Origin: a virus | IMG/VR virus record: IMGVR_UViG_3300045988_150188 | Location: 1 to 37,478 of that record | DNA length: 37,478 bases | Reading direction: 5' to 3' (one strand) | Part shown: one piece after another, positions 82 through 37,478 of the stretch | How positions within the stretch are numbered: the first letter of the stretch is position 1 | How the letters are laid out: every line of letters starts with the position of its first letter | Position numbers and translations under genes: made by a program | Notes under the pieces: generated by a model | What the model was told of the DNA's origin: nothing | Databases searched by the model: none | What the model saw: only the letters and a program-made list of their open reading frames with translations

Positions 82-755
82 TCACTGCGACCCCTCCCTT
101 GCCTTGAGGCATTCGTTGTAGCATGTCTTGACCACATCGATGGGCCATGTGTCCATCTGGCCATGCTCGGTCGCGTAGCGTCCGATGATTCCCGCGATCT
201 CCATGTCCATGTCGGTCCATGCCCAGCGGGTCATGGTCTCGATGAGGATCCTGCGTTGCTTCTCGCGGGGGTCGGGCGTGGATGACTTCTTGGATGCGGT
301 CTTGATGCGGTCGGCCTCTGCGTAGATCTCCTCGTTGGTGTAGGAGTCGATGTCGTCGCGTGCGAGGGCGCCGATGTCGAACGCGGATTTGTAGAAATTT
401 TTGATCAGATTGGTGACGACCTTGCCGGTACCCTTGTCGCCGTTGTCCATGGCCTCGCCGAGGGTCTCGTACTCGATGACCTGTGTGGGGTCGTCGGCGT
501 TGATGATCCTGAACTTCGCGGACGCGTAGAAATGGACGGTCTTCTCGCCGGGGTTCTGGATCCTGTCGAGGTCGATGTCGCAGGGTCCGACGTGGATGAT
601 GCCGGCCTCGACGCATGCTGACCTCACTCTTGCGCGCATGGTGTCGATGGTGATCGACTTGTAGGTCGCGTTGGACAGGTCCTGCTCCCATGCCTGGGAT
701 CCGAGGATCTCGCATGCCTTGACGATGCGCTGACAGACGTTGAGGGTGTCGCTCA
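82..755 (-). CDS. hypothetical early protein (~224 aa)
   Basis: GTG start with GGAGGG SD and a 6-nt spacer. GTGA overlap with the upstream gene's stop. High-GC3 protein-like sequence; the N-terminal part of the table ORF 82..1050 is R-rich read-through. Confidence 0.6.
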
Positions 756-1094
756 CTGCGATCCCTCCTTGGTCTCGGGTATGTGTGTGTATATGTATGG
801 TGTGTGTGTGCGCACCAAATCGTGTCTGCCCTCGGCGACGAGGGCGAGTTTGATGGCGGGGATGTCGAGGATCAGGACGCCTTCTGCGTAGGGCGACTGC
901 TCTGCGTAGATCGATGCTTCGAGCGTCTTCCACATCCTGTCGAGGACGGGCTTCGAGACGATCGTGTCCGATGTCATCATGATCCTTGCGTACACCGTCC
1001 TGTTCAACGGACGGTTCGACTCCCTCGGATCGATCTCCAATCCGACCCACAACGCAGGGAGCACATCACGGGTCAGCGTCTTTTTTGCTGGCAT
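753..1094 (-). CDS. hypothetical protein (113 aa), first gene of the early operon
   Basis: ATG at 1094 preceded by AGAGG SD. Coherent ORF ending KEGSQ*. Contains a CA-repeat-encoded HTPYIYTH stretch. Confidence 0.55.
   Translation of the reverse strand: MPAKKTLTRDVLPALWVGLEIDPRESNRPLNRTVYARIMMTSDTIVSKPVLDRMWKTLEASIYAEQSPYAEGVLILDIPAIKLALVAEGRHDLVRTHTPYIYTHIPETKEGSQ
781..810. repeat. alternating (TG)n/TA low-complexity tract
   Basis: tgtgtgtgtatatgtatggtgtgtgtgtg. Resembles the inverted complement of the tract at 2193-2219. Confidence 0.6.
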
Positions 1095-1255: not shown

Positions 1256-2158
1256 TTATTCCGCCCTGATCGTGCCTCTCATGATCGCCGATAGTCCGTC
1301 CTGCGCCGCGTGCATCTTGCTCGGATCGGCGTGGACGTAGCACCGGAGCGTCGTCGTGATGTCGCTGTGGCGCATCAGGCGGCGGACGGTGTCCAGGTCG
1401 GCCTCGACGATGTTGACCAGCGTCGAAGCGTACAGTCTGCGGAGCGCATGAGTCGTGACCTTGATGCCGACACGCTCTCCGAGCGCATCCATCCACATAT
1501 AGATCCGGTTAGGGACGACTCCCGTCCATCTCCCGGCTCTCTGGACTTGGATCAATCTCGCGTCGGATCTCGGACCGTTGCCTTTCCATGCCCGGTACGT
1601 CCGGATCTCGTCGGCGACCATCGGAGGGATGTCCATGATCTGGACCAATCCGTTCCCGTGGCCTTTTCCGCGGATCGTCATCTTGTGCGCGCGGAGGTCG
1701 ATGTCGTCGTCCTCCAGTCCTGCGATCTCCGCTCTCCGGAGTCCCATCAATGCTCCGAGGACGAGGATCATCCTCTCGGTCGGCTCGGCCTCGTAGTACA
1801 GCCGTCCGTAATCCTCGACGGACAGCCACACGCGGTCGGGTTCGTAGCGGTTGCGGAGGATGTCCATCCTCTTGATCCAATGAGGGCATCCGAAAAAGTC
1901 GGACATCCTCGACAGATATCCGATCTCGCGGAACCGGACCTCGTCACTCTTGCTCTCGCCGAGTTTGTCGTACAGCCAATAGACATCGTCCTCGGTGATC
2001 TCCTCGATCCTTGTCGGCCTTCCGTCCTCGGACAGCGTCCGGAGGAGTCTCATGCAGACGCATCTCGTCTGCTTCAGCGTCAACGGCCTCCTCCCATGGA
2101 GGTCGAGATATGATATGTACTCGTACACTTGCGAGTAGTCGACAGTCGTCATGTGCAT
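1256..2158 (-). CDS. int: tyrosine recombinase / phage integrase (~300 aa)
   Basis: C-terminal catalytic motifs HALRRLYAS and RHSDITTTLRCYVH (R..H..R..Y). ATG at 2158 with GGGAGGAAAGAG SD; TAA stop. Residues upstream in the table ORF are junk. Confidence 0.85.
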   Translation of the reverse strand: MHMTTVDYSQVYEYISYLDLHGRRPLTLKQTRCVCMRLLRTLSEDGRPTRIEEITEDDVYWLYDKLGESKSDEVRFREIGYLSRMSDFFGCPHWIKRMDILRNRYEPDRVWLSVEDYGRLYYEAEPTERMILVLGALMGLRRAEIAGLEDDDIDLRAHKMTIRGKGHGNGLVQIMDIPPMVADEIRTYRAWKGNGPRSDARLIQVQRAGRWTGVVPNRIYMWMDALGERVGIKVTTHALRRLYASTLVNIVEADLDTVRRLMRHSDITTTLRCYVHADPSKMHAAQDGLSAIMRGTIRAE

Positions 2159-2192
2159 CTCTTTCCTCCCATCCCTTGGGGTTTTTCCGACG

Positions 2193-2219
2193 CACACACA
2201 CATATCACACATACATATC
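2193..2219. repeat. alternating (CA)n/TA tract upstream of integrase
   Basis: cacacacacatatcacacatacatat. Inverted relative to the 781-810 tract. Confidence 0.6.
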
Positions 2220-2233
2220 GCGATTTTAAGCAT

Positions 2234-2249
2234 CCGCTTATATATCGGT
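2234..2249 (-). promoter_or_regulatory. TATA-like box (gatatataag on the minus strand) about 80 nt upstream of the integrase start
   Basis: Sequence only; inferred. Confidence 0.35.
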
Positions 2250-2467
2250 AGCGTGTAGAGATATGCGGTGCAAATCGGGGTTCGGTCCTCGGGGGCGTCC
2301 GGTTGGATTTTGCCGTCTTTTTCGGGCGCCCGCACCCATGCACTCGGCATGTCAAATCTCTCTTGATCCCTGATGGGATCCCGGGGCCTGACTGGGGAGT
2401 AAGGCCCTGGTGTTCGTTTCATCTTGTGTATCTATGATTCTTCGACATCGGCTTAAAGCCATCGCCT

Positions 2468-5849: not shown

Positions 5850-5853
5850 ATTC

Positions 5854-7247: not shown

Positions 7248-7352
7248 CTCTAGATGTGCTTGCACGCCCCGGCCTTGGAGTAGACGGCATCCAGATCCTT
7301 TTTGCAGTACGGACAGAAGCGCGGGATCTCCGCGATTCCGGACATGGTTTTG

Positions 7353-7408: not shown

Positions 7409-7409
7409 T

Positions 7410-7799: not shown

Positions 7800-7800
7800 T

Positions 7801-14581: not shown

Positions 14582-14589
14582 GCCTGAAA

Positions 14590-14650
14590 AGACGAGAGAC
14601 GGGGTATAAAAACGAAATTCAGAAAAATGGTTTGGAAGGGGTTTGGAGGT
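14590..14650 (-). promoter_or_regulatory. conserved promoter element copy (GGGGTATAAAAACGAAATTC plus GGTTTGGAAGGGGTTTGG on the plus strand)
   Basis: One of three near-identical copies. Confidence 0.6.
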
Positions 14651-17205: not shown

Positions 17206-18923
17206 GCCCTCGACCCCCTGCGCCTGGATTCGGTCTGGAGCGGGTCATACACCGCCCTGGCGATCTTGCGCCCGTCGAGGTTGACGACCAGCTCGATGGG
17301 TCCTGACGACTGCCTGCCGGCCCCGCCCATCTCGGAGATGGCGGACTTCACGGCGTCCTTCATCAGGCTCACAGGAGAGACGACCTCGTACTCGCGGGTA
17401 TTGTCGCCGAGGATATAGGGCATCGGATTGTTGGGTGCGACCGCTCCTCCGGATGCGAGGCCGAGCGCGCCCTTGATCTTGGAGACGGCTTTGCCCGGCA
17501 AGGATGTTATGCCTCCGACAGGGTCCTCCACGAAGGATGTGACACCTCCAACGAGGCCATCCTTCAACTCACGGACTTTGGATATCATATCCTCGATCTT
17601 GCCCAGGACCGTATCCACGATCTCCTTGATCTTGTCCCATACGGCCTTGATAGGGTCCATGATGTGGTCCTTGAACTTCTGGCCTGCCGTCTGGATGACT
17701 CCCCACACGGTCTCGGCGATGGTCTGGATTCCTTTCCAGACGTTCGTGGCGAATCCCGATATCCCTCCCCACACGGTCTCGGCGATGGTCTGGATTCCTT
17801 TCCAGACGTTCGTGGCGAATCCCGATATCCCTCCCCATACGGTCTGCGCGACACTCTGGATGGTGGTCCAGACCGTGGTGGCGACACCAGAGATGGTCGT
17901 CCAGACTGTTGAGCCCACCCCCTGCAGAGTGGACCATACCGTGGAGCCTACGGATTGGATGGTCGTCCATGTGTCCCCTCCGAATTTCGTGATCTTGCTC
18001 CAGGCTTCGCCGCCCCACTTGCCGACGTTCTCGAAGACTCCTTTGATCTTGTCCTTGATGCCCGTCAGGGAGAAATTGTCGAGGAAAGCGCGGATCTTCT
18101 GCCCGATCTCCTCCCCGAGCTTGGAAGCGTCCTCCATGCCTTCCTTGAGCTTGTCGGCCTGCTCCGCATCGCCGGAGTTGGACATATCCAAGGTGTTGAG
18201 CTTGTCGAAGCCCGCCAGCCCTGCGGATGTGGCCTCGACGACCTCGCCCATGGAATCGGCCGCATCCTTCGCCGACTCGGACGACGACTTGAAGACGTCT
18301 CCGAATCCGAGGAAGTTGGCGAGTGCGTTGATGCCGCTCTTTATCCACTCGACGACCTGCTTGAGTCCGTCGATGACCGGCTGGACCATACCCTTGATGA
18401 TCCCCCATATGAATGAGCGCAGTATGCGGATCTTTTCCAAGATCCATGTGATGCCGTCCACGACCTTGGAAACGATCGTCATGATGCCGTTGACCAGCGG
18501 AGCCGTGAAAGACCCGATCGTGGTCTTCAGCTTCTTGACGCTCTTCTGCATCTGCCCCGCGGCCTTGGAGTAGCCCTGCGGGTCGAACATCCGGGCCGTG
18601 TCCTTGGCGAACTGCCAGGCGACCTTGGCGGCCTTGGCTGCGATGGCGACCAGCGCTCCGACGACTCCGAGCTTGAAGAGTTTGGCCGCGCCGGAAGATT
18701 TGCCGAAGGCTCCGTCGATCTTGCTGGAGGACTCCTGCCATGTGTCGGACACCTTTTTGAATGTGGGCGAGATGGCCGACAACTTGGAGTTGAACGATGC
18801 CCATTTGGACTGCGACTTCTCCGATTTGTCGGCGGTCTGGTCGAGCTTGCGGTCGACCGCGTCCATGTCCCTCTCGAAGGACTTGGTGTCGGCCGTGACC
18901 TTGATCTTGATCTCGTCTGCCAT
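17202..18923 (-). CDS. tail tape measure protein (573 aa)
   Basis: ATG 18923 with GAGGT SD. Long alpha-helical protein with perfect 22-aa tandem repeats (TVWGGISGFATNVWKGIQTIAE). Confidence 0.85.
   Translation of the reverse strand: MADEIKIKVTADTKSFERDMDAVDRKLDQTADKSEKSQSKWASFNSKLSAISPTFKKVSDTWQESSSKIDGAFGKSSGAAKLFKLGVVGALVAIAAKAAKVAWQFAKDTARMFDPQGYSKAAGQMQKSVKKLKTTIGSFTAPLVNGIMTIVSKVVDGITWILEKIRILRSFIWGIIKGMVQPVIDGLKQVVEWIKSGINALANFLGFGDVFKSSSESAKDAADSMGEVVEATSAGLAGFDKLNTLDMSNSGDAEQADKLKEGMEDASKLGEEIGQKIRAFLDNFSLTGIKDKIKGVFENVGKWGGEAWSKITKFGGDTWTTIQSVGSTVWSTLQGVGSTVWTTISGVATTVWTTIQSVAQTVWGGISGFATNVWKGIQTIAETVWGGISGFATNVWKGIQTIAETVWGVIQTAGQKFKDHIMDPIKAVWDKIKEIVDTVLGKIEDMISKVRELKDGLVGGVTSFVEDPVGGITSLPGKAVSKIKGALGLASGGAVAPNNPMPYILGDNTREYEVVSPVSLMKDAVKSAISEMGGAGRQSSGPIELVVNLDGRKIARAVYDPLQTESRRRGSRA
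17702..17833. repeat. 66-bp perfect tandem duplication inside the tape measure gene
   Basis: cccacacggtctcggcgatggtctggattcctttccagacgttcgtggcgaatcccgatatccct twice in a row, plus a diverged third unit. Confidence 0.85.
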
Positions 18924-23195: not shown

Positions 23196-23250
23196 TAAAA
23201 CGACGAGGATAGGGGTATAAAAACGAAATTCGGGATTAAGAGGTTTCAAG
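23196..23250 (-). promoter_or_regulatory. conserved promoter element copy (internal promoter before scaffold and capsid)
   Basis: aggggtataaaaacgaaattcgggattaagaggtttcaaggggttt on the plus strand. TATA ~43 nt before GTG 23170. Confidence 0.6.
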
Positions 23251-28256: not shown

Positions 28257-28285
28257 GTTAACCCTCCGTTTAGGTGATGAAAAGA

Positions 28286-28340
28286 CGAGTCGGGGGGTAT
28301 AAAAACGAAATTCGGAAAAACAAGGGGAAATGGTTTGTCC
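28286..28340 (-). promoter_or_regulatory. conserved promoter element copy driving the packaging/head operon
   Basis: cggggggtataaaaacgaaattcggaaaaacaaggggaaatggtttg on the plus strand. TATA ~44 nt before GTG 28256. Confidence 0.65.
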
Positions 28341-28445: not shown

Positions 28446-28667
28446 TCACATCAGCTCCCAGACGGCGAGATGGCAGGAGGTGTCCAGACGCTTGCGTCTG
28501 ATGTAGCCGAGCCACTTGAGACGGTCGAGCGCCGCGGCGATGTCGGCGTCATGGCGGTTCCTCCCCATCGCCTCCTCGATGTCCTTCATGGTCATGGGTC
28601 TAATGCGGAGATGCCTCACGATCTCCTGCTCTATGGGCGTCAGCGGCTGCATGACACCTCTGTCCAT
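28446..28667 (-). CDS. winged-helix transcriptional regulator paralog (~70 aa)
   Basis: EQEIVRHL...MTMKDIEEAMG...RLKWLGYIRR...VWELM. Member of the paralog family. Confidence 0.55.
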   Translation of the reverse strand: MDRGVMQPLTPIEQEIVRHLRIRPMTMKDIEEAMGRNRHDADIAAALDRLKWLGYIRRKRLDTSCHLAVWELM

Positions 28668-28807
28668 GCCCATGCGATGCCTGCGAGCCATGCTGATGCG
28701 CCTGCGACGATGCCCCCGGGCGTGCATATAGCCGCGAGGATGGAGACGACGGTCGCTCCGAGGACGATGACGGCGGATGCGAGGATGCGGTCTTCGCGTT
28801 CGGTCAT
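28640..28807 (-). CDS. small two-helix membrane protein (55 aa)
   Basis: ATGA overlap. GAGGAGG SD. Confidence 0.5.
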   Translation of the reverse strand: MTEREDRILASAVIVLGATVVSILAAICTPGGIVAGASAWLAGIAWAWTEVSCSR

Positions 28808-29037
28808 ATCCACTTCCTCCTCTGCTTCACGTTCCACCTGCCTATGGCCTCGATCCGCGACCGATACCTGCGCGTGTGTCTTCCGCAGTAGATGCACTGG
28901 ACACGGTAGCGGTAGTTCGTCCAGTCGTGGAGGTCCGGGTCGAACTCCTTGGTGACTATGAGACACACTCCGTCAGAGCATCTTTTGCATGGGAGGATAT
29001 GGGCATCGCTTAGGGGGGTCCTCTCCGTCTCGGTCAT
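28804..29037 (-). CDS. Cys-rich zinc-ribbon protein (77 aa)
   Basis: CKRC...C and C.YC motifs. Confidence 0.55.
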   Translation of the reverse strand: MTETERTPLSDAHILPCKRCSDGVCLIVTKEFDPDLHDWTNYRYRVQCIYCGRHTRRYRSRIEAIGRWNVKQRRKWI

Positions 29038-29350
29038 CGACCCTCCACTCCCATTCGCTCTGGTCCAACGCCTCGTCCATCGCGTCCCTGCGCTTCGCCA
29101 CCAGGTCCCAATCTCCCGATCCTATCGCCGCGAGGTAGTGGTGGTAGCACGTCTGCAGCCTCTTCCGCTTGTCCTCCGGCATGGTCGCTCCGGCCAGGAT
29201 GTCGTCGATGCACAGCGCGTAGTCCATCGCCCTGCGATGGGCACGGCGTTCCCGCTCCATCTCGTTTTGAAGTTTGCAACTATTGAAATAAAGGATGCTC
29301 GCGCAGATGATGGCGAGTATCCCAGATATCAGTGTGATCCAATCCGCCAT
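28973..29350 (-). CDS. membrane protein with N-terminal TM helix (~125 aa)
   Basis: MADWITLISGILAIICASILYF. GAGGTGAG SD. Confidence 0.5.
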   Translation of the reverse strand: MADWITLISGILAIICASILYFNSCKLQNEMERERRAHRRAMDYALCIDDILAGATMPEDKRKRLQTCYHHYLAAIGSGDWDLVAKRRDAMDEALDQSEWEWRVDDRDGEDPPKRCPYPPMQKML

Positions 29351-29355
29351 CCATC

Positions 29356-29526
29356 TCACCTCTCCCTCGTTCCCGATGCGTAGCTCCCGCATCCGAACCC
29401 CTCCGGGTCCCATCTGATCTGACAGCCGTTGTGTCTGCAGTACGGCGACAGTCCGCGCCACGTCAGGCTGTCGCACTCGTAGCATGTGAACCAGTCGCGG
29501 CTCATGAACGCGTGGATCTTGGCCAT
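29356..29526 (-). CDS. Cys-rich zinc-finger protein (~56 aa, below ORF-table cutoff)
   Basis: MAKIHAFMSRDWFTCYECDSLTWRGLSPYCRHNGCQ... GAGGTGGA SD with a 6-nt spacer. Confidence 0.45.
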   Translation of the reverse strand: MAKIHAFMSRDWFTCYECDSLTWRGLSPYCRHNGCQIRWDPEGFGCGSYASGTRER

Positions 29527-29747
29527 CGCTCATCCACCTCGAACATCATCGCTCCGACGATGTGCCTCCCGGCGAGGACACGCCTGGTGCCGGGCTTGGG
29601 GCCTTCGCTCATGACGGTCCTGTCGTTTGCGATGGCGTTCTCGATGTAGCAGAGTCTTTCCTGCGCCTCCTTCTGCGTCCCGTAGATCTCGTTGATGGCG
29701 AGGATGCTCTCGTGCGTCGGATAAACGCAGACACGCCATTGGGTCAT
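29502..29747 (-). CDS. hypothetical protein (~81 aa)
   Basis: ATGA overlap. GGGAGGAGAGGGGGG SD. Confidence 0.5.
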   Translation of the reverse strand: MTQWRVCVYPTHESILAINEIYGTQKEAQERLCYIENAIANDRTVMSEGPKPGTRRVLAGRHIVGAMMFEVDERWPRSTRS

Positions 29748-30109
29748 TCCCCCCTCTCCTCCCTTATCCACGCCTTCATCTTCTGCGTCCCTTGGATGAC
29801 CGCCTCCTCGAACTGGAGGTCCCCGGCATACCACGCCGTGTCCATCAGGAGGTCCTGGATCATGCCGACCTTCCTGTCGTACTCTTCGGGCATGAGACCT
29901 CTGATGCGGTCCAGCGCTTCTATTGCAGTATTTAGGGCGTTCCAGGTGATGTCCACATGATCGAGTTCGTCGGTCTCGTCATCCTCCCAGTCGTCATCCT
30001 CGTCGACCCCTGCGGGGGCCTCGACCCATTTGTGTATGATCCCGCAGTGAGAACAGTAGTAGATGTCCTCACTCTCTACCAGCAGCTCTCCGCAGATGGG
30101 GCATTTCAT
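29744..30109 (-). CDS. N-terminal zinc-ribbon protein with acidic linker (121 aa)
   Basis: MKCPICGEL...YYCSHCG. ATGA overlap. Confidence 0.55.
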   Translation of the reverse strand: MKCPICGELLVESEDIYYCSHCGIIHKWVEAPAGVDEDDDWEDDETDELDHVDITWNALNTAIEALDRIRGLMPEEYDRKVGMIQDLLMDTAWYAGDLQFEEAVIQGTQKMKAWIREERGE

Positions 30110-30276
30110 TCCGACCCCTTCTTCATCATCTTGTGGAATCTCCCGTTGCACGCCGGGCATAGCACCTTCTTGCCGATTGACCAGCCCTCCATGCGGAGCC
30201 GCTTCATCATCTCCTTCTTGGGGATCGATGCCCGCTCCCAGAAACGACACCGGTCGCACTGCCACTCTGTTATCAT
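30106..30276 (-). CDS. zinc-ribbon protein (56 aa)
   Basis: CDRC...CPAC. AAGGAGGCGGAGGA SD junction. Confidence 0.5.
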   Translation of the reverse strand: MITEWQCDRCRFWERASIPKKEMMKRLRMEGWSIGKKVLCPACNGRFHKMMKKGSE

Positions 30277-30473
30277 TCCTCCGCCTCCTTGAACGCCTTG
30301 TTGCATTCGCATCTCCTGAGCGCGCGCATCAGCCACCTCACCTCGTCCCATTCGAGACAGCACCTGCGCTCCTCCAGCCTGTCGTCCCAAACCGTCAGGG
30401 TCAGGCGACCGTCCTCCATCATGCGGACGGCGATCTGGAGGTCGTCGGACAGGTCGTAAGTCATCAGCGTCAT
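30273..30473 (-). CDS. small hypothetical protein (66 aa)
   Basis: GGGAGGA SD with a 6-nt spacer. TAATG overlap. Confidence 0.5.
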   Translation of the reverse strand: MTLMTYDLSDDLQIAVRMMEDGRLTLTVWDDRLEERRCCLEWDEVRWLMRALRRCECNKAFKEAEE

Positions 30474-30760
30474 TAGTCATCCTCCCGGGTCAGATCGTCT
30501 GCCATGCATCTGCACTGCTTGGCCAGTTCCTTACGGTCGGGGTAGTTGTCGGAGCAGACCGTCCACTGGATCGCGTACAACAGCTGGTCCATCGAGACCT
30601 CCAGCTCCGCTCTGGCCGTCGGCGTCAGATCCCCGAGGGTATTCGTTGCCATCCTCAACAGATGCAGTGCGATCCATTGCAACTCGGGCAGACGTTCGAT
30701 GTCGGGATCCTCGATCATCTCGTCGATGATGTCGGATTGATTCTTCGTCAGGACTTTCAT
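30473..30760 (-). CDS. hypothetical protein (95 aa)
   Basis: ATGA overlap. GAGGAGGA SD. Confidence 0.5.
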   Translation of the reverse strand: MKVLTKNQSDIIDEMIEDPDIERLPELQWIALHLLRMATNTLGDLTPTARAELEVSMDQLLYAIQWTVCSDNYPDRKELAKQCRCMADDLTREDD

Positions 30761-31092
30761 TCGTCATCCTCCTCGTCATCGTCGTCTTCCTCGTCGATCC
30801 CGTATGACTCCTCCTTCTCCTCCTCGGTGTCGCCGTCCCAATAGCCGACGAGCGTCACAAGACGCATGAGTCCCGCCTCGACGCCCGGACCGATGACGTA
30901 ACGACCGTAGTCGTCCACTTGGATGGTGTTGACCTCCGTCTCGATGCGGGTGTCGAACGTGCAGGATGACACCCTCCACCGGTCGGTGTCATGGAGGTAA
31001 TAGAACCCGATGGAGACCCAATCCCGATACTGGAGCCTGAAGCTGACCTTGTCCGCGATCCTCCCGGCGATGCGGTCGGCGAGTCTGGTCAT
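30757..31092 (-). CDS. hypothetical protein with poly-acidic C-terminus (111 aa)
   Basis: AAGGAGGCGGAGGA SD junction. Confidence 0.55.
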   Translation of the reverse strand: MTRLADRIAGRIADKVSFRLQYRDWVSIGFYYLHDTDRWRVSSCTFDTRIETEVNTIQVDDYGRYVIGPGVEAGLMRLVTLVGYWDGDTEEEKEESYGIDEEDDDDEEDDE

Positions 31093-31250
31093 TCCTCCGC
31101 CTCCTTTTCCAGATATTCGTACACGATCTCGTCGATGCAGTTGGCGCACAGCGGGATCCTCTTAGGGAAGCTCATATAGATCCTTCCCGCACCTGCTTCG
31201 TCGAGATCGAATCCCGTCTTGCATCTGGAGCATGCGATAAGGCAGGTCAT
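31089..31250 (-). CDS. zinc-ribbon protein (53 aa)
   Basis: CLIACSRC...CANC. Confidence 0.5.
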   Translation of the reverse strand: MTCLIACSRCKTGFDLDEAGAGRIYMSFPKRIPLCANCIDEIVYEYLEKEAEE

Positions 31251-31624
31251 CGCACCATCCTCCATCTGGCAGTGAAATGGTCGTCGCACAACTCGACGAC
31301 ATGGCCGTTGGCCTTCGGTCCGAGCCTGGCGGTCGGCTCTCCTGCGATGATGCGTCTCTTGTCGTTCATCCAGAAATTGAACTCCGGTGCGATCTCGCAC
31401 TGGCAGATCATCCCTTCGCGCATACAGTCCAACGCCTCCTCGAAGGACAGGCCCCACACGACCTCGCCGCAGTTGCGCAGGAGCAGCGATTGGAACCACT
31501 CCTTGTCGGGGTTCTTCGCGAGCAGCCGGTCTCCGTCCATCTTGTACTGCCAGTAGCCGTCGGTGATGGTCTTCCCGCGGAGCAATGCGACCATCGCCTC
31601 CTTCTGCGTCATGAACCGGCTCAT
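31247..31624 (-). CDS. DUF2829-like phage protein (125 aa)
   Basis: N-terminus MTQKEAMVALLRGKTITDGYW resembles the phage DUF2829 family (recalled from memory). Confidence 0.5.
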   Translation of the reverse strand: MSRFMTQKEAMVALLRGKTITDGYWQYKMDGDRLLAKNPDKEWFQSLLLRNCGEVVWGLSFEEALDCMREGMICQCEIAPEFNFWMNDKRRIIAGEPTARLGPKANGHVVELCDDHFTARWRMVR

Positions 31625-31776
31625 TCCTTGCCCCTCCCGAACGCTTTGGCGAGGTCAGGCCATCCCATGCACTCGCATGTCCTCTTGTCCTCTCTCGCGT
31701 CTCCTGACGGCCCCTGCATGTGCAGGGCGGAGAATCTGTCGGCCATGAGGACGGAGATGGTGGATGGTGTCCTCAT
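31621..31776 (-). CDS. small hypothetical protein (51 aa)
   Basis: ATGA overlaps on both sides. GGAGGAG SD. Confidence 0.4.
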   Translation of the reverse strand: MRTPSTISVLMADRFSALHMQGPSGDAREDKRTCECMGWPDLAKAFGRGKE

Positions 31777-32141
31777 TCGCTCTCCTCCAGCTTCTCCTTC
31801 TCCACCTCGTGGATGCTGACGAGGATCACCCTTGCGCACAGCACGTCGCTCGGCCTGACCATGATGGACTCGCGGTCGTAGCCGTCCTTGATGGTGATGA
31901 CATCGTCCCTCCTGTCCTGCGGCACGTCCAGCTTCGCCATGGCCTCGTCTGCTCTGTATTTGGTCTGGAAGAACAGGGAGGTCCCGTCGTCAGGGCCTCC
32001 GGGGATGGTGATGTCGAGGCACCACACCTTCCTGGACTGCTCCTCCGGCGTGGGCTTGGTGCAAGTCTGGTCGAGGACCTTGTCGGACAATCTGCCGTCA
32101 GAGTTGCCGAGGGTAGCACGTATGGGATCGAACAACCTCAT
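31773..32141 (-). CDS. hypothetical protein (122 aa)
   Basis: ATGA overlap. Confidence 0.5.
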   Translation of the reverse strand: MRLFDPIRATLGNSDGRLSDKVLDQTCTKPTPEEQSRKVWCLDITIPGGPDDGTSLFFQTKYRADEAMAKLDVPQDRRDDVITIKDGYDRESIMVRPSDVLCARVILVSIHEVEKEKLEESE

Positions 32142-32395
32142 TCGCCCACCATCCTGATGACATAGACCGACTCTATATGCTCCGGATTGACCGCCACATC
32201 CGAGACCTCTGTCGTGAATGTGGGTGAAAGAACCGGGCTACCGAACATCAACAATCTCTCTTTCCACCGTATCGCGTTGCGGATCGCGCTCGCGGTCTCC
32301 TGCGCTTCCTCCATGCTCTTGCAGGGGATCACCCAATCATCTCTGCTCACCATGATGATCCGGACGGCGAACTCCAGTGTCTTTTCCGGCGTCAT
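32138..32395 (-). CDS. hypothetical protein (85 aa)
   Basis: ATGA overlap. Confidence 0.5.
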   Translation of the reverse strand: MTPEKTLEFAVRIIMVSRDDWVIPCKSMEEAQETASAIRNAIRWKERLLMFGSPVLSPTFTTEVSDVAVNPEHIESVYVIRMVGE

Positions 32396-32787
32396 TCTCC
32401 CATCCTCCTGTTGGCTCTCTCCGCGAATTCCTGCAGCCACGATGGGCAGGTGAGATCGAATGCGTTGGACGTCCAGTATGAGAATCCGCAACTGCATTGT
32501 ATGCAGACGGAATCGACACCCCACGTCAACACGCTGGCATCCAATCCGATCGACTCAAGGGCGCGCATGTCGAATGCACCGTTGTCGTCCATCGCATCCA
32601 TAAGGTCCATCATCAGATCCCCATCATCGGCAAACGCGATGTCTTTGGCTGTAAGGCGACGCCCGCATATCGGGCAGGGCCTGAATCCGTCGGGGCCTTT
32701 GCGCATCATCTTCTCCCAATTCTCCGCCTTCGCTTGGAGTCCGGCGTAGTGGCAGTCCCGAGCCTCGTCTTCACTGAATATGCCCAT
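32392..32787 (-). CDS. Cys-rich protein (131 aa)
   Basis: CPICGRR, CIQCSC, CPSW motifs. Confidence 0.55.
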   Translation of the reverse strand: MGIFSEDEARDCHYAGLQAKAENWEKMMRKGPDGFRPCPICGRRLTAKDIAFADDGDLMMDLMDAMDDNGAFDMRALESIGLDASVLTWGVDSVCIQCSCGFSYWTSNAFDLTCPSWLQEFAERANRRMGE

Positions 32788-33108
32788 TCAGTCCACCTTC
32801 TCCCAATCATCTGCGGTCATGTCGCCTACGTTGAGTATCCTCACAAACGCGTCCTCATAGGCGGGATATTTGGTGTTGATGATGGCCGGTGCCGGACCGG
32901 ACATGTCCAGCACGGCATCGCGCCTGTATTCGGCCCATCTTCTGCGCCTGAACTGCGAGTACTTCGCACCACACCTCACACGTGCGAGGACCCACTCGAA
33001 CGTCCCGATCTTCGGAAGGTACTCTGCCGATTCTTCCAGAATCTTGTCGATGCGTCCGCCGGACTTCCAAACGTCCAGCTTCTCTATCATCTCCATGGCA
33101 TGCGTCAC
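32788..33108 (-). CDS. hypothetical protein (106 aa). In frame with 33181-33429 across a TAA with coding-like intervening codons and no SD.
   Basis: GTG 33108 lacks an SD. The 24 codons between the TAA at 33181 and the GTG are high-GC3 and protein-like. Confidence 0.45.
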   Translation of the reverse strand: MTHAMEMIEKLDVWKSGGRIDKILEESAEYLPKIGTFEWVLARVRCGAKYSQFRRRRWAEYRRDAVLDMSGPAPAIINTKYPAYEDAFVRILNVGDMTADDWEKVD

Positions 33109-33180
33109 AGATCTGGTGATGACCGTCTCAAGGGCGACGGAGACGTCTTGGATCTCCTTGATGTCATCCTCGTCCAGGAC

Positions 33181-33429
33181 TTAGTCCAGCTTCAACTCGT
33201 GCAGGTCCTTGGTTTTCCTCACGAGATCGCCGCAGATGATCACGAACTTCACGGCCTGTATCAGGGAGGCCATCTCTGTAGAGCGATCTACATTCATGAC
33301 CAGCCCCGCGAGTCCTCTGACCCTTGCTGTCAACTCCTTGAGGCCGTCGTCATCGCATATGGTGTCAAGCATGTCGAGCATATTCAACATGGCCTCGATC
33401 TCCTCGATGGCTGACTTATCCTCCGTCAT
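33181..33429 (-). CDS. hypothetical protein (82 aa), ends at TAA
   Basis: ATGA overlap. GGAGGACGAGG SD. Confidence 0.5.
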   Translation of the reverse strand: MTEDKSAIEEIEAMLNMLDMLDTICDDDGLKELTARVRGLAGLVMNVDRSTEMASLIQAVKFVIICGDLVRKTKDLHELKLD

Positions 33430-33605
33430 TCCTCGTCCTCCATCTGCTTGTAGTACGGGCATCTTCCCTCGTTGCACATCTCGCAGTCCTCGTCGGTCAT
33501 GGCATTCTCCATCTCGCACTCGAAATCGAGGTATCCGGGGCCGTCGAAGTCCACCTTGACCTCTCCGACGAAGGCGTGGATGCAGTCGCCGCACTGGTCG
33601 GTCAC
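33426..33605 (-). CDS. Cys-rich acidic zinc-binding protein (~59 aa)
   Basis: GTGA overlap. CGDC...C.MC...C motifs. Confidence 0.45.
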   Translation of the reverse strand: MTDQCGDCIHAFVGEVKVDFDGPGYLDFECEMENAMTDEDCEMCNEGRCPYYKQMEDEE

Positions 33606-33787
33606 TCGCATCCCTCCTTGGTCCATCTGCCGTATTTCCTCTTGGCCGCAGCTGTCAGTCTGGTCGGACATTGCATCGAGCGACGTGCGAGCTGCGGATG
33701 GGCGCAGAACATGTTGACTCCGAGATCGTCGTCGGCGTAATCCACCTGGAACATGCAGCCTTTGCATTCCTCGGGGCAGGGACTCAC
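33602..33787 (-). CDS. Cys-rich zinc-ribbon protein (~61 aa)
   Basis: CPEECKGC...QCP. GGAGGG SD with a 6-nt spacer. Confidence 0.45.
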   Translation of the reverse strand: MSPCPEECKGCMFQVDYADDDLGVNMFCAHPQLARRSMQCPTRLTAAAKRKYGRWTKEGCE

Positions 33788-33957
33788 TCGCATCCCTCCA
33801 TGATCTCCTTGCCGCTCCTCTGATCCGCCGGCACTCCGGCGTAGTCGTAGATGGCGTTGGCCCACTCCATCACGGTCCCCATCTCCTCGTCGTCCATCAA
33901 CTCCATCGCGTAGGACATCATCCTGTCCGCCAGATCGATCAATCCGTCAGTAGTCAT
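33784..33957 (-). CDS. small acidic protein (57 aa, below table cutoff)
   Basis: MTTDGLIDLADRMMSYAMELMDDEEMG... Ends EGCE* on the same junction sequence as 33602. Confidence 0.4.
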   Translation of the reverse strand: MTTDGLIDLADRMMSYAMELMDDEEMGTVMEWANAIYDYAGVPADQRSGKEIMEGCE

Positions 33958-34132
33958 CGTATGTCATCTCCCTCATAGCCTCGCTTACTGCTTCCATTGT
34001 CTTGATGTAGAGTTTCATCGGGACCCCCGCCGGGGGGTCCTTGATGCAGACGACCTCCCCCATGGCGGTCATCGCTCCGAGCCTGACCGCGTCCATGAGC
34101 GCGGTCTTCTCGTCTGTTGTGATCTCGGTCAT
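33947..34132 (-). CDS. small hypothetical protein (61 aa)
   Basis: TGA-ATG adjacent junction. GAGGGA SD. Confidence 0.45.
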   Translation of the reverse strand: MTEITTDEKTALMDAVRLGAMTAMGEVVCIKDPPAGVPMKLYIKTMEAVSEAMREMTYDDY

Positions 34133-34333
34133 TCAATCCCTCGCGTATGACGAGCATCCGTCGCATGTGCGGTCGTAGGCGACGCCTCCCATGAGTCTGC
34201 ATGTCCCCATGACGAAGACCTCGCCTCCTGCCATCAGTCCGCTGTCGATGTCGATCTTGAGCCATCTGCAGCGCTTCCCGTCGGGGAAGACCCTGTCGAT
34301 GTCTCCGACCGTGTCCATGTCCATCTGTCTCAC
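34133..34333 (-). CDS. Cys-containing small protein (66 aa)
   Basis: GTG with GGAGGGCGATAGA junction. Confidence 0.45.
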   Translation of the reverse strand: MRQMDMDTVGDIDRVFPDGKRCRWLKIDIDSGLMAGGEVFVMGTCRLMGGVAYDRTCDGCSSYARD

Positions 34334-34539
34334 TCTATCGCCCTCCATGTGGCGAGCCATGTGGTGCATCCGGGCTTCCAGACCGGCTCGCCGTCCTCGA
34401 CGAATTTGTATTTGGCCAGCTTTTTCAGCGACCTGCGGACGTAGGTCGGACTGCATCCGGTGTCGGTGCAGATCTGTGTGACCGTCATCGGTCCGTGCTT
34501 GCGGAGGGAGGCCAGGACGATCTCCTGGGATTGGGTCAT
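34330..34539 (-). CDS. winged-helix regulator paralog (69 aa)
   Basis: ...TVTQICTDTGCSPTYVRRSLKKLAKYKFV...TWRAIE. Confidence 0.55.
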   Translation of the reverse strand: MTQSQEIVLASLRKHGPMTVTQICTDTGCSPTYVRRSLKKLAKYKFVEDGEPVWKPGCTTWLATWRAIE

Positions 34540-34567
34540 GCGAATGCCTCCAATATCGCTGTCATCA

Positions 34568-34789
34568 TCAGCGCACCTCCCAACGGCGTGTTCCATTGGA
34601 GTCCACGGAGCGGGTCACATGACCCTCCTCGTACAGTCTCCGGAGCATGCTCCCGACCGTGTTCGAACCGGTCACCCACCTGTCGCCGAGGGCGTCCAGC
34701 ACCTCCGACGCGGTGGACGGGCGTCCGAGCGTCTTGAGCGCGTCGTAGACCATGCCGGCACGACTGCCCGTGAGGATGGTCCCGGTCAA
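34568..34789 (-). CDS. winged-helix regulator paralog (~73 aa, TTG start)
   Basis: MVYDALKTLGRPSTASEVLDALG...RRWEVR. GGGAGG SD with a 7-nt spacer. Confidence 0.5.
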   Translation of the reverse strand: MTGTILTGSRAGMVYDALKTLGRPSTASEVLDALGDRWVTGSNTVGSMLRRLYEEGHVTRSVDSNGTRRWEVR

Positions 34790-35004
34790 TCGACCGCCTC
34801 CCAGATCTGGATCCATCTCTGGGCGATGCCCTTGCCGTAGGCAGGGTTGGCGCGGTAACCGACCATGCGGATGCTTCCTTGGCTCTTGAGGACGGAGATC
34901 GCGTTGGCGACCCTCCACGGCGGGAGTCCGGTCCTGCGTGCGATCTCGACGATGGTGGCGCGTCCGAGGTCGCATATGACGCAGTAGACTCTCGACACGG
35001 ACAT
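34786..35004 (-). CDS. winged-helix regulator paralog (72 aa)
   Basis: ...IVEIARRTGLPPWRVANAISVLKSQG...IWEAVD. GGAGGGAG SD. Confidence 0.55.
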   Translation of the reverse strand: MSVSRVYCVICDLGRATIVEIARRTGLPPWRVANAISVLKSQGSIRMVGYRANPAYGKGIAQRWIQIWEAVD

Positions 35005-35300
35005 CGCTCTCCCTCCATGCGGACGTACTGCGAGCATGAGCGAAAATCGCACAGGTCCTCGTCGGTGATGTCCTTGGAGCCGCACTCGTAGACCATCTCG
35101 CCGTCGACGTAGGCGTGTGCGCATGTGGAGCATTGGCTCTCGATGCGGATGTCCTGGAGGCGCCATCCATCCGTCAGTCCGGCGCGGATGCGTCCGATCA
35201 GCGCCACGACGCTCCTGCATCCGTCGATGGTCTCTGTGCGGGTCTCGGTGGCCGCGTTGACCTTGTGACGGCAGTAGGTCATGACGATCCTGTCCATCAT
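34990..35300 (-). CDS. Cys-rich protein (~100 aa) with no in-frame stop before the next gene (C-terminus undefined)
   Basis: ATG 35300 with GGGAGGA SD and a 6-nt spacer. 9 Cys in 100 aa. The frame stays open to 34536 but loses protein character after ~35000. Confidence 0.4.
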
Positions 35301-35485
35301 GATCGGTCCTCCCTCGGGATCAGGTCCTGCGCCTCCATCCACGCGTTGAGCGTCAGGATGGCGTTCTGGACCTCCAGGAGCCTTCCGTCGAGTTCGGGCT
35401 TGGCTCCGAACCTCGCGTCGGCGATGGCTCTCGCGAGGGCCTTTCCGCGGGCGCGGACGATGCACAGCTTCTCGGTCTGGTCCAT
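35297..35485 (-). CDS. small hypothetical protein (62 aa)
   Basis: TGATG overlap. Confidence 0.45.
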   Translation of the reverse strand: MDQTEKLCIVRARGKALARAIADARFGAKPELDGRLLEVQNAILTLNAWMEAQDLIPREDRS

Positions 35486-35721
35486 CAGGCGTCACCGTCC
35501 ATCTGCTTGAGCATGGCCTTGGCCTTGACGCCGGTGATCCATCCCTTCCCGCATGTGCCGGGTGCGATGGCGAGTTCCTTGGATGCCACCATCTTGAGCA
35601 TCAGGGACGATGCAATGGAGCGGTCGATGCCGAGGTGGTCCATGATCTCCTGCTGTGTGTGGGCCGTCTCGCAGTACGAGAGGATGCGGTCTTTCAGCTG
35701 GGTGACGGTCGCCTCGGTCAC
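35485..35721 (-). CDS. winged-helix-like protein (78 aa)
   Basis: GTG with GGGAGGCGATAGA junction. ...TQQEIMDHLGIDRSIASSLMLKMV... Confidence 0.5.
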   Translation of the reverse strand: MTEATVTQLKDRILSYCETAHTQQEIMDHLGIDRSIASSLMLKMVASKELAIAPGTCGKGWITGVKAKAMLKQMDGDA

Positions 35722-35930
35722 TCTATCGCCTCCCAAACACGGGTGGGCTTGGAGGTCTTGGGGGCCTTCCGAATCTCCTTGACGCGGACCCTGCCGGCTT
35801 CGACAAGGATGTGGATCGTGTTGAGGATTGAATCGTAGTTGGACCGGGGGATGCGGTCGACCATCTCGCTGATGGTGGCGGGTCCCTCGGCGAGGGCGGC
35901 CATGACCAGTGGCTCGTAGATCGCGCTCAT
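35718..35930 (-). CDS. winged-helix regulator paralog (70 aa)
   Basis: ...TISEMVDRIPRSNYDSILNTIHILVEAGRV...VWEAIE. Confidence 0.55.
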   Translation of the reverse strand: MSAIYEPLVMAALAEGPATISEMVDRIPRSNYDSILNTIHILVEAGRVRVKEIRKAPKTSKPTRVWEAIE

Positions 35931-36130
35931 TCGATGACCTCCCAGATCGGAGCATATGCGTAGGGGGTCAGCCTCTCGAAACGGAGGATCCTCGCTTCTC
36001 CGCGCGCCTCCATCCTGCGGAGCGCACGACGGACTCCGTTCTCGGATGCGCGAGGGATGCGGGCCACAATCTGCCTGACGCTCCCGGGACCCTGCTTGAG
36101 GGCCTCGCGGACGTCCTCCTCGTAGGTCAT
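35927..36130 (-). CDS. winged-helix regulator paralog (67 aa)
   Basis: ...SVRQIVARIPRASENGVRRALRRMEARGE...IWEVIE. Confidence 0.55.
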   Translation of the reverse strand: MTYEEDVREALKQGPGSVRQIVARIPRASENGVRRALRRMEARGEARILRFERLTPYAYAPIWEVIE

Positions 36131-36264
36131 TCCGCTCCCTCCTGCCATGATGCGATCAGGTCGCAGGGACAATGCCTCGGGATCATCTCCGCATCCTCGG
36201 TGACCATCTCGCACGCTCCGCCGTCGTCGTGACAGCGGTTGCACGTCCAGACGTGGATCCTCAT
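36127..36264 (-). CDS. zinc-ribbon mini-protein (45 aa)
   Basis: CNRC...CPC. GGAGGA SD with a 6-nt spacer. Confidence 0.45.
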   Translation of the reverse strand: MRIHVWTCNRCHDDGGACEMVTEDAEMIPRHCPCDLIASWQEGAE

Positions 36265-36467
36265 GGACGGTCCTCCGGTGTCGCACCGCAGAACGGGCAG
36301 GACCGGATCGTCATGCCCTTGCGGGGATTGTCGGTCATGCGGAGCATCAGCTGGCCCTTGGTGCCGGTGTAGACCTGTCCACGCAGGACGCAGACGTCCA
36401 TGTCGCGGCAACATGCGGCGATGCCGGTCTTGGTGACGGCCAGACGGCCGTCGTAGGTGGCTGTCAT
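36261..36467 (-). CDS. Cys-containing small protein (68 aa)
   Basis: ATGA overlap. CPFCG motif. Confidence 0.45.
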   Translation of the reverse strand: MTATYDGRLAVTKTGIAACCRDMDVCVLRGQVYTGTKGQLMLRMTDNPRKGMTIRSCPFCGATPEDRP

Positions 36468-36719
36468 AGGTTGTGCCCCCATTGGTTGACGGTCGGCTCC
36501 CCGTCGCCGAGCCATACGGTCTTGAGCGGTGCCACGACTCCGGATGCGGAGACGATGGAGATCTTGCACCATGCCTCGGGCTTGATGCCCCGGCGGTCGC
36601 ACTCGGCGAGGATGTCCGACATGCGGTCCTCGATGCGCTGCTGGTCGCTGGCGACCTTGATCTTGATCGAGTCTGCGCCGTAGGGCGTCACGAGGTAGCG
36701 AGAGATCTTGGAGTTCACT
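36464..36719 (-). CDS. hypothetical protein (~84 aa)
   Basis: GTGA overlap. Confidence 0.45.
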
Positions 36720-36939
36720 CGACCACGCTCCTGATCAGGCGGCGGGGGCGGTGGTTGCCGGATGTGGCCACGTTGGTGATGTAACCGCGGACTTGCAGGT
36801 AGTCGCATGCGCTCTTGACGCGCCTGTGGGTGATGCCGGTGGCATCCGCGATCTCCTGCGTGGTCTTGCCGGGGTACATCGTGATATGATCGAGGACGCG
36901 GTACCTGATGCTCGTCGCGTCGGACTCGAATGGGATCAT
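36715..36939 (-). CDS. winged-helix regulator (74 aa)
   Basis: RYRVLDHI...TTQEIADATGITHRRVKSACDYLQVRGYI. Confidence 0.55.
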   Translation of the reverse strand: MIPFESDATSIRYRVLDHITMYPGKTTQEIADATGITHRRVKSACDYLQVRGYITNVATSGNHRPRRLIRSVVE

Positions 36940-37285: not shown

Positions 37286-37431
37286 GCGTACTCCCTCCTG
37301 CGGAGCCAGGCATCGCGTTCCTTTCTGGCCGCGTCCCTGCGCATGGCTTCGATGCGTGCTTCCTCGGCCTCGATCTCCGCCTTGTACTCGTCGGAGTACT
37401 CGGTGTCGACGATGGCCCTGCATCCGGGCAT
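37282..37431 (-). CDS. small charged coiled-coil protein (~49 aa). Its start lies in the terminal repeat.
   Basis: High-GC3 frame MPGCRAIVDTEYSDEYKAEIEAEEARIEAMRRDAARKERDAWLRRREYA. ATGA overlap with the next gene. Confidence 0.35.
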   Translation of the reverse strand: MPGCRAIVDTEYSDEYKAEIEAEEARIEAMRRDAARKERDAWLRRREYA

Positions 37432-37478
37432 GCGTGGCTGATGACGGTGCGTCCGCACATGGCGAGCCTCGATCCGAG
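37424..37478. repeat. 3' copy of the 55-bp terminal direct repeat
   Basis: Exact copy of bases 1-55. ORFs continue in frame across the junction. Confidence 0.9.

Follow-up and report, generated by a model that had tools for sequence, protein, structure and literature searches.

Small proteins with transcription-factor or zinc-finger folds have long been known to be abundant in archaeal viruses (PMC4027180), and arCOG01057, a virus-associated family of winged helix-turn-helix (wHTH) regulators, is among the commonest families in archaeal 'dark matter islands' (PMC4158269). Stf76, encoded by the Sulfolobus plasmid-virus pSSVx, is a wHTH protein of 76 amino acids (aa) that lacks the dimerisation helices of ArsR and MarR proteins; free in solution it is a monomer, and at two sites in its own promoter it binds DNA as a 2:1 complex (PMC4027180). 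The wHTH repressor Orf4 of SNJ2 controls the integrase gene and lysogeny, and ORF6 of MSTV1 has been proposed to do likewise (PMC11375127). Here we describe eight small genes of IMG/VR record IMGVR_UViG_3300045988_150188 (37,478 nt, henceforth the window), which, judging by its matches, is a temperate tailed archaeal virus of the genus Ventrumvirus, family Clermontviridae, with a host among the Methanomassiliicoccales (gut methanogens). Pfam matches, leave-one-out hidden Markov models (HMMs) and an AlphaFold2 (AF2) model of one member give good support for seven of the eight products as minimal wHTH proteins of 67–74 aa; the eighth is only HTH-like. By analogy with Stf76 we think it reasonably likely that the eight, as a set, are sequence-specific DNA-binding regulators of transcription.

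The likeness to Stf76 is architectural: a stand-alone wHTH protein of ∼76 aa, consisting of three helices and a wing only, with a basic recognition helix, and carried by an archaeal mobile element. The differences are that there is no detectable sequence similarity, that pSSVx has one such protein as opposed to the seven or eight found here, and that the binding of Stf76 has been measured, whereas the proteins of the window are known from sequence and a model. SNJ2 Orf4 and MSTV1 ORF6 are also small wHTH proteins of temperate archaeal viruses with a tyrosine integrase (and the host of MSTV1 is also a gut methanogen). There, in contrast, the partner of the wHTH gene is an Orc1/Cdc6 gene; no Pfam match to Orc1/Cdc6 was obtained among the genes of the early operon that holds the eight genes plus ten large open reading frames (ORFs) at 82–9543, a scan that was not exhaustive for the genome.

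All eight ORFs reported by the first-pass annotation are present; the coordinates by which it listed them (28446, 34330, 34568, 34786, 35485, 35718, 35927 and 36715) are the stop-codon ends of genes that lie on the minus strand, as do all genes of this genome. Here they are numbered #1 to #8 in that order. Starts were refined by an operon-wide rule (a GGAGG Shine-Dalgarno sequence and a 4-nt start/stop overlap), giving proteins of 67–78 aa. In the direction of transcription these are #8 (36939..36715, 74 aa), #7 (36130..35927, 67 aa), #6 (35930..35718, 70 aa), #5 (35721..35485, 78 aa, with a GTG start), #4 (35004..34786, 72 aa), #3 (34789..34568, 73 aa, with a TTG start), #2 (34539..34330, 69 aa) and #1 (28652..28446, 68 aa), which is the last gene of the operon. 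The product of #3 would be 82 aa long if the ATG at 34816 were used, as in the annotation of the relative vir215.

Comparison was made with fourteen related contigs, subsets of which supplied the ratios of non-synonymous to synonymous polymorphism (pN/pS; 5–10 orthologues for each gene) and the orthologue counts (nine relatives). Purifying selection is evident on all eight genes in the called frames, with pN/pS ranging from 0.05 for #1, the most strongly constrained, through 0.11 (#5), 0.24 (#8) and 0.29 (#3) to 0.42 (#7); the alternative frames of #3 and #4 gave 1.2–2.0. All eight are real genes. Their products are basic (median isoelectric point (pI) 9.4, against 4.9 for the rest of the operon) with the exception of #5, which is neutral. 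Small basic winged-helix proteins account for ∼11% of the ∼70 genes, about one in nine, and the wHTH set is kept in every relative examined: the suggestion that the virus encodes more than a single repressor is borne out.

Three of the proteins pass a Pfam gathering score: #2 with HTH_5 (28.5 bits against a cut-off of 22), #8, which is of the MarR_2 type (34 bits against 27), and, narrowly, #3 with Penicillinase_R (22.9 bits against 22.6, a borderline value). Below the cut-offs, #4 matches TrmB (1.4e-3) and HTH_24 (4e-3), and #1 weakly matches MarR_2 (6e-3). The protein #2 also matches a PHROG family of 'transcriptional regulator' (4e-5), and its match to the NCBIfam model HTH_metalloreg scores 19 bits, the cut-off being 55. 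The AF2 model of #6 has a mean predicted local distance difference test (pLDDT) score of 88.9, with helices at residues 6–14, 20–26 and 32–44 followed by strands at 48–54 and 63–68: the order H-H-H-beta-beta. In this predicted structure helices 1 to 3 and the wing fill the 70 residues, with no dimerisation or sensor parts. A Foldseek search with the model returned Phr of Pyrococcus furiosus (2p4w) as the best match together with ArsR, PadR, HxlR and TFE-alpha, at TM-scores normalised to the query (TMq) of 0.7–0.83, and against BFVD many small phage wHTH proteins. Because it is homologous to #6, #7 is counted as a wHTH protein; by itself it has no Pfam match.

Profiles built from seven members and run against 38 genes of the operon provide an independent view of the set. 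In every one of these leave-one-out tests (8/8) the omitted member ranked first, with E-values of 1.4e-8 (#6), 2e-7 (#1), 4e-7 (#4), 7e-7 (#8), 5e-6 (#2), 1e-4 (#7), 2e-3 (#3) and 0.011 (#5). No ninth member was found by the eight-protein profile among the 454 ORFs of the window.

These results bear on the most radical alternative, namely that the eight are artefacts: GC-rich out-of-frame ORFs that resemble one another in composition, with a shared C-terminus derived from Shine-Dalgarno sequences alone. At ∼60% GC the genome does contain many spurious long ORFs, and the C-terminal tail does overlap the Shine-Dalgarno sequence (see below). Selection, however, is purifying in the called frames only, three genes lie above a Pfam cut-off, the model of #6 is confident, detection by leave-one-out was complete and the genes are kept in at least 14 related contigs. 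Together these observations refute the artefact and leave it a negligible probability.

The helix-turn-helix-wing layout originally described for all eight proteins therefore holds for seven. For #5 the AF2 model, made from a shallow alignment, has a pLDDT of 67 and shows three helices in an HTH-like order followed by a C-terminal helix, with no wing. Foldseek returned no match with E < 1 for this model, the weak matches being nearly all HTH domains, and in single-sequence searches of the PDB neither #5 nor #7 obtained a match below E 0.7.

The proteins share the winged-helix core of several cellular families without being full members of them. ArsR/SmtB, MarR, PadR and HxlR proteins and Phr (2p4w) superimpose on the core of the #6 model with TMq 0.75–0.83 and a root-mean-square deviation of 1.4–2 Å, but these proteins are about twice as large as the viral ones, which have neither dimerisation helices nor metal- or ligand-sensing parts. 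MarR proteins proper have ∼140–150 aa and terminal dimer helices, where we find 67–78 aa and, in the model of #6, the core only; the length and the secondary structure of #6 likewise depart from ArsR/SmtB proper, a five-helix homodimer of ∼100-aa subunits with alpha1/alpha5 and metal/thiol sites. Small wHTH and HTH proteins of tailed phages in BFVD (ArsR-type, MarR-type and a mycobacteriophage 'HTH DNA-binding domain protein') resemble the window's proteins in fold and size (70–115 aa, TMq 0.75–0.84), but identity is only 12–28% and the families described here are confined to this virus lineage.

The best PDB match of the eight-protein profile was the Z-alpha domain of PKZ (E 1.9e-5), aligned over the full domain length including the wing Trp, and the Z-alpha domains of PKZ and CyHV-3 were also among the Foldseek matches. 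This raises the question of whether the proteins might bind left-handed Z-DNA or Z-RNA. In Z-alpha domains, such as those of ADAR1 and PKZ, a conserved Asn and Tyr in helix 3 contact Z-DNA. In the seven wHTH proteins the positions aligned to these two residues of PKZ are occupied by L/R/A/R/G/A/K and H/R/S/K/R/D/D, respectively. A MarR protein scored equally well in the profile search (2.1e-5), and the structural rank of Z-alpha was only 27th. The wing Trp that also marks Z-alpha domains (P-x-W) has its counterpart in six of the eight tails, yet Trp at this place is common in unrelated wHTH domains. With the defining Asn/Tyr of helix 3 missing and the structural rank low, we reject membership of the Z-alpha family, which we regard as very improbable.

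To what extent the eight form one family is a separate matter. The adjacent genes #6 and #7 are clear paralogues: their products align at 31% identity (blastp 1e-6; phmmer 4e-8), and hhalign of orthologue profiles gives 98.9% with an E-value of 4e-17. The next pairs are #8–#4 (68%), #7–#4 (37%), #6–#4 (27%) and #7–#2 (25%), while #1, #3 and #5 have marginal links only, at the level of the fold. As a group, wHTH–wHTH pairs are nonetheless enriched, making up nine of the top 20 among 741 hhalign pairs (hypergeometric p = 5e-9; Mann-Whitney 8e-10): similarity is thus above chance, to the extent predicted by shared membership of one ancient superfamily. The eight are therefore more accurately described as a collection of small wHTH genes that includes one recent duplicate pair. 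The "tandem paralogous family of eight" of the first-pass annotation is an overstatement, paralogy standing for #6 and #7 and the rest being related only at superfamily level.

Beyond the window, an exhaustive HMMER search with the eight-protein profile returned 1,870 proteins, the top matches being mostly generic multi-wHTH repeat proteins. Searches for distant homologues of #6, #1 and a Lar-like zinc protein of the same operon returned close orthologues from the same virus lineage only; for #8 and #2, tblastn against 50,697 phage records matched vir215 alone, and a scan of representative genomes produced no match. The wHTH families present here thus appear to be restricted to a single lineage of viruses.

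The genes are embedded in an early operon of ∼40 small genes (∼10 kb), all on one strand, which runs from an Erf-like gene across the window origin (into 37458 and below) down to 28446; the region 28.4–37.4 kb comprises most of it. Of the 38 operon genes called, 29 overlap the next start by 4 nt (ATGA, GTGA or TTGA) and 30 have GGAG or GAGG within their last six codons, mostly as the full GGAGG: the genes are translationally coupled, chained by GGAGG Shine-Dalgarno sites and start/stop overlaps. In transcription order the upper cluster reads #8, an 84-aa gene, two zinc genes, #7, #6, #5, a 62-aa gene, a zinc gene, #4, #3, #2 and a further zinc gene; eight more Cys-rich genes follow at 33.8–28.8 kb and #1 comes last of all. 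The operon terminates ∼125 nt ahead of a promoter-like element (28278–28320) that opens the packaging and structural modules. A scan of the operon for AT-rich sequence found one island only, within a coding region. The only gap in the wHTH cluster, 29 nt between #3 and #2, is spanned by a mini-ORF of ten codons (MMTAILEAFA; 34568..34536, minus strand) that shares nucleotides with the stop of #3 (TGATG) at one end and with the start of #2 (ATGA) at the other and is preceded by the GGAGG of the #3 tail; it looks like a translational-coupling bridge, and is at the same time the tail of a read-through frame that begins at 35300 (see below).

This organization largely explains the C-terminal tail, W(E/R)(A/V)I(E/D), that had been taken as conserved throughout the set. 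An exact tail is present in four proteins, #2 (TWRAIE), #4 (IWEAVD), #6 (VWEAIE) and #7 (IWEVIE), and a partial one in #3 (WEVR) and #1 (VWELM); it is absent from #5 and #8, so that Trp occurs in six of the eight tails. In the model of #6 the second wing strand, residues 63–68 (TRVWEA), is predicted to hold Trp66. Moreover, Trp occupies the equivalent place of the wing in internal, non-terminal wHTH domains of the unrelated proteins P0007 (ARWALP repeats), P0026 and P0121 (RWEAIG), which makes the Trp of the tail a feature of the fold at the protein level. At the nucleotide level, the tail codons TGG-GAG-G or TGG-AGG-G contain the GGAGG of the next gene, and the final GA(A/G/T)-TGA supplies its overlapping ATG, GTG or TTG.

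The same signal is found in operon genes that do not encode wHTH proteins. GGAG or GAGG occurs in the last six codons of 23 out of 30 such genes, 19 of them with the complete GGAGG; the NTGA overlap is likewise seen in 23, E or R occupies position −4 or −5 in 22, and the final residue is E or D in 18. Their tails include WQEGAE, MEGCE, KEGCE, LEESE, KEAEE, WEKVD and WRMVR. The (E/R)(A/V/G)..(E/D) part of the tail is thus not specific to wHTH proteins. The W-E-(A/V)-I-(E/D) tail is the last strand of the wing overlaid on the Shine-Dalgarno sequence and start/stop overlap of the next gene: a double-duty sequence. Because constraint acts on it both as protein and as nucleotide sequence, it is not a functional motif specific to a family. 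A general caution follows: where the genes of an operon are tightly coupled, a "conserved C-terminal motif" may be the imprint of the ribosome-binding site and start codon of the gene downstream.

The identity of the virus rests on several observations. A perfect 55-nt direct repeat (repeat family D15) occupies both ends of the window (1–55 = 37424–37478); with these identical termini, the window represents one complete genome, circular and 37,423 bp in length. The genome is matched at 88–92% identity over 59–64% of its length by vir215 (Caudoviricetes sp., NC_092586.1), a circular record of 37,696 bp from a gut metagenome with Methanomassiliicoccales as host, whose current name in one source is Ventrumvirus gergoviense, family Clermontviridae; every gene of vir215 across the wHTH and Cys-rich region is annotated "hypothetical protein". 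The genome encodes a tyrosine integrase (2422..1256, minus strand; Pfam Phage_integrase, 3.5e-13) and, next after it, an Erf-like single-strand annealing protein (1050..82; PHROG 155). One relative, L010, is a provirus: a junction between viral and non-viral sequence lies in a contig of GCA_964307145.1 that also holds non-viral genes. The integrase together with this junction marks the virus as temperate.

The first-pass annotation had proposed a comparison of copy number among related viruses; variation was found, and it is restricted to a cassette formed by #7 and #6, which occurs in 1 to 3 copies. Genes #1–#5 and #8 are single-copy and syntenic in all relatives, mostly with 83–100% protein identity (the exception being #1 in L009, at 48%). 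Being both single-copy and conserved in all relatives, these six are a core early programme. The only variable wHTH locus is the segment from a 45-aa zinc gene to #5. Both #7 and #6 are found in eight genomes, while L010 has three gene copies at this locus, including a novel 67-aa wHTH gene (L010 9598–9801) that ends in LWEAVE. L009 carries a chimera of the N-terminal part of #7 and the C-terminal part of #6, joined at the RIPR motif that the two share, and also a novel 62-aa wHTH-like gene (L009 2779–2967) with an N-terminus resembling that of #2. In-frame #7/#6 deletion hybrids of 57 and 37 aa, both without helix 3, are present in L014/L015 and L006, and in L016 an unrelated ORF of ∼200 aa (1621–2240) replaces #7. 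Tandem paralogues that recombine typically behave in this way. The pair #7/#6 is thus a tandem duplication that recombines at RIPR: an accessory, exchangeable cassette.

That the eight are regulators of transcription is suggested by their fold, basic charge, minimal architecture, purifying selection and conservation, together with an early-operon position in a temperate virus. As for Stf76, the free proteins would be monomers that pair on DNA, and together the eight would time viral transcription, probably including the lysogeny decision. Obvious targets to consider would be five conserved promoter-like elements with the appearance of a transcription factor B recognition element (BRE) and TATA box, each preceding a later gene module; host genes, too, may be acted on by some of the eight.

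These elements, all in minus orientation, belong to a 43-nt repeat family (D7) with three long copies at 28278–28320, 23196–23238 and 14585–14627, and weaker copies near 7368–7383 and 5907–5922. On the minus strand each reads CCGAATTTCG and then the TATA sequence TTTTTATA; the conserved 16-mer, on the plus strand TATAAAAACGAAATTC, is found in three exact copies and two with three mismatches, against 0.03 expected by chance. The three long copies continue as CTCGTC.TTT(C/T)A, and an AAACC box lies upstream in all five. In relatives the element is kept after the orthologue of #1. Its extended conservation may reflect a strong BRE/TATA core or a regulator site. The 245-aa gene that follows the first element probably begins at GTG 28255 (Shine-Dalgarno sequence GGAGGG) rather than at ATG 28345.

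Several points weigh against a regulatory role for the whole set. Five of the eight miss every Pfam gathering threshold, #1, #4 and #5 falling below and #6 and #7 having no wHTH match at all, and #5, with its neutral pI and its lack of a Trp tail, is no more than HTH-like. The link between the promoter-like elements and the wHTH proteins is positional only. Hybrids of #7 and #6 without helix 3 occur in contigs of virus length (32–40 kb), from which it follows that the pair is dispensable for viability. One candidate operator was also rejected: the imperfect palindrome GGAGGTATTACAtgTGTAATACATCC (1149–1174, minus strand), with 12-bp arms GGAGGTATTACA-tg-TGTAATACATCC, lies between the integrase and Erf-like genes, and the provirus junction of L010 maps to within a few bases of the palindrome's centre, which makes the core of the viral attachment site, attP, its most likely identity. 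Finally, 'transcription factor' is a prior for the fold, and winged helices also serve protein–protein contacts, origin binding and recombination directionality.

This last point leads to the possibility, improbable but the least so of the alternatives considered here, that at least some of the eight have a role other than that of transcription factor: they might act like an excisionase, load the origin or replisome beside the Erf-like recombinase, or bind and redirect the host's transcription machinery (TFE, TFB, RNA polymerase) or chromatin. The virus is temperate, yet no excisionase was identified among the Pfam and PHROG matches of the scanned proteins. The #6 model matches the winged helices of TFE-alpha and of Pol III RPC82 (TMq 0.73–0.80), the PHROG matches of #8 include 'replication initiation O-like' wHTH families, and #2 weakly matches Sta1, Lrs14 and the wHTH domain of Csa3. 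However, each of these matches is generic to the fold and falls short of the family cut-off, and sequence does not separate such roles from operator binding.

A second alternative to regulators of viral transcription concerns the company that the wHTH genes keep. The presence of about a dozen zinc-ribbon-type mini-proteins is confirmed: twelve small proteins (45–131 aa) have at least four Cys and at least one CxxC, and six of the twelve show the classic zinc-ribbon spacing with two CxxC. The early operon is 17-fold enriched in CxxC motifs (5.9 per 1000 aa, compared with 0.34 elsewhere in the genome), and its Cys content is 3.6% against 1.25%. None of the twelve reaches a Pfam or NCBIfam cut-off. 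The two kinds of gene do not alternate, as had been claimed: seven wHTH genes occupy 34.3–36.9 kb, where they form runs of three and are interspersed with no more than four Cys-rich genes, and the other eight Cys-rich genes lie at 28.8–33.8 kb, where #1 is the sole wHTH gene.

The four upper Cys-rich genes, all like the rest on the minus strand, encode proteins of 68 aa (36261..36467; CC and CPFC, no Pfam match), 45 aa (36127..36264; CNRC ... CPC) and 66 aa (34133..34333; CDGC), and a protein with a conserved core of 98 aa (35005..35300). The core of the last has a pN/pS of 0.33, and its ORF continues to 34536. There is no stop at the start of #4, either in the window or in nine of nine relatives, and the ORF overruns #4 and #3 in another frame, by 145 to more than 300 codons depending on the genome. 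As a real long protein we reject this 254-codon ORF (35300..34536): its last 156 codons lie out of frame over #4 and #3, and the read-through frame over #4 has a pN/pS of 1.38, meaning that it is not selected.

The remaining eight, in descending order, encode a 61-aa protein with six Cys (33602..33787), an acidic zinc-ribbon-like protein of 59 aa (33426..33605; CGDC ... CEMC, net charge −15) that is a paralogue of the 35300 protein (hhalign 95.8%), an acidic protein of 131 aa (32392..32787; CPIC ... CIQC) with orthologues in none of nine relatives, a zinc-ribbon-like protein of 53 aa (31089..31250; C..C ... CANC, with a weak match to Pfam Zn_ribbon_4, E 0.018), a basic zinc ribbon of 56 aa (30106..30276; CDRC ... 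CPAC), an acidic protein of 121 aa with an N-terminal zinc ribbon (29744..30109; CPIC ... CSHC, net charge −21, Pfam Zn_ribbon_3 4e-4, below cut-off), a Cys-rich protein of 56 aa (29356..29526; CYEC) and a Lar-like zinc ribbon of 77 aa (28804..29037; CKRC ... CIYC). The likeness to Lar, an anti-restriction family, is weak: Lar_restr_allev (PF14354) matches at E 1e-3 with 19.8 bits against a cut-off of 28.6, and TIGR03655 at 2.7e-3 with 18 bits against 39.6; the homologues are unnamed close orthologues confined to this virus lineage.

Genes at 34.1–37.3 kb have orthologues in 6–9 of nine relatives, while many of those at 28.8–33.8 kb, for the most part acidic or Cys-rich, have them in 0–4 of nine; vir215 has a radical-SAM (S-adenosylmethionine) gene in the latter segment that the window lacks. 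The wHTH cluster is the conserved core of the early operon, and the zinc/acidic segment is its fast-changing accessory part.

Could the whole be an anti-defence island, with the wHTH proteins as autoregulators, like the anti-CRISPR-associated (Aca) proteins, of adjacent anti-CRISPR (Acr) or anti-restriction genes encoding the small Cys-rich or acidic proteins? The genes are in an early-expressed position, many tiny neighbours carry a strong negative charge (net −10 to −21), a frequent trait of inhibitors that mimic DNA, the segment 28.8–33.8 kb turns over fast, one of its zinc ribbons is weakly Lar-like and the #7/#6 cassette varies in copy number. Aca regulators, too, are small viral HTH proteins among small early genes. 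Classically, an Aca protein represses the promoter of its own small acr operon. Here, by contrast, there is no adjacent validated acr gene, no promoter for each cassette and no match to Aca or Acr in Pfam, NCBIfam or PHROGs: the curated Acr, Aca and anti-restriction models of Pfam and NCBIfam are matched above cut-off by none of the proteins, and in PHROGs the wHTH proteins have only weak, generic matches. Instead of each standing behind a candidate inhibitor, the wHTH genes form runs of three; six of them are single-copy and conserved, and the variable genes lie several kb away; and the operon is single, long and coupled, with no internal promoter-like element and no separate self-regulated cassettes. 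The Aca/Acr-like array put forward in the first-pass annotation is thus not borne out for the wHTH set, and we consider an anti-defence island unlikely. The hypervariable segment at 28.8–33.8 kb is a more plausible place for anti-defence genes than the wHTH cluster.

A speculative combination of these ideas, to which we attach about the same low probability, is a two-part island for takeover of the host. The six core wHTH proteins would reprogramme transcription, while in the #7/#6 cassette N-terminal and helix-3/wing halves would be swapped at RIPR, giving rise to new DNA specificities. These could serve as determinants of heteroimmunity or superinfection exclusion, or as Aca-like controllers of anti-defence acidic zinc genes.

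Regulators of viral transcription remain the reading that we favour. The class of finding has been known for nearly two decades, and in this respect the result is incremental and fairly ordinary for archaeal viruses. New here are the lineage-restricted families in an unstudied group of viruses, their unusually high count, the recombining #7/#6 cassette and the dual-coded tail. Viruses of gut methanogens are almost entirely uncharacterised: six core wHTH proteins, a two-gene cassette and five promoter elements make up a testable list of regulatory parts for a virus group without a genetic system.

Some features elsewhere in the genome deserve mention. A TATA-like sequence, CTTATATATATCA (1243–1231), lies on the integrase side of the putative attP, with the consequence that integration would part it from the early operon; integration could be a physical off-switch of the early genes in lysogeny. 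A 53-nt AT-rich repeat, AATTACTATATGGCAATTCCAGTATATATAACTATTTAC..ATAGCAATTAC, is present upstream of the integrase region in two copies that are 96% identical and 1.1 kb apart (2844–2896 and 3975–4027); the pair may represent a duplicated promoter or operator that serves the lysogeny module. Runs of CCTCC/CCGCC with a 9-nt period on the plus strand at 7892–8663 correspond to Gly-rich repeats on the minus strand, inside a protein of 580 aa that matches Pfam Gly_rich_2. Within a large minus-strand ORF of the structural region, three tandem 66-nt repeats at 17699–17896, two identical and the third at 70%, would give 22-aa repeats in the protein.

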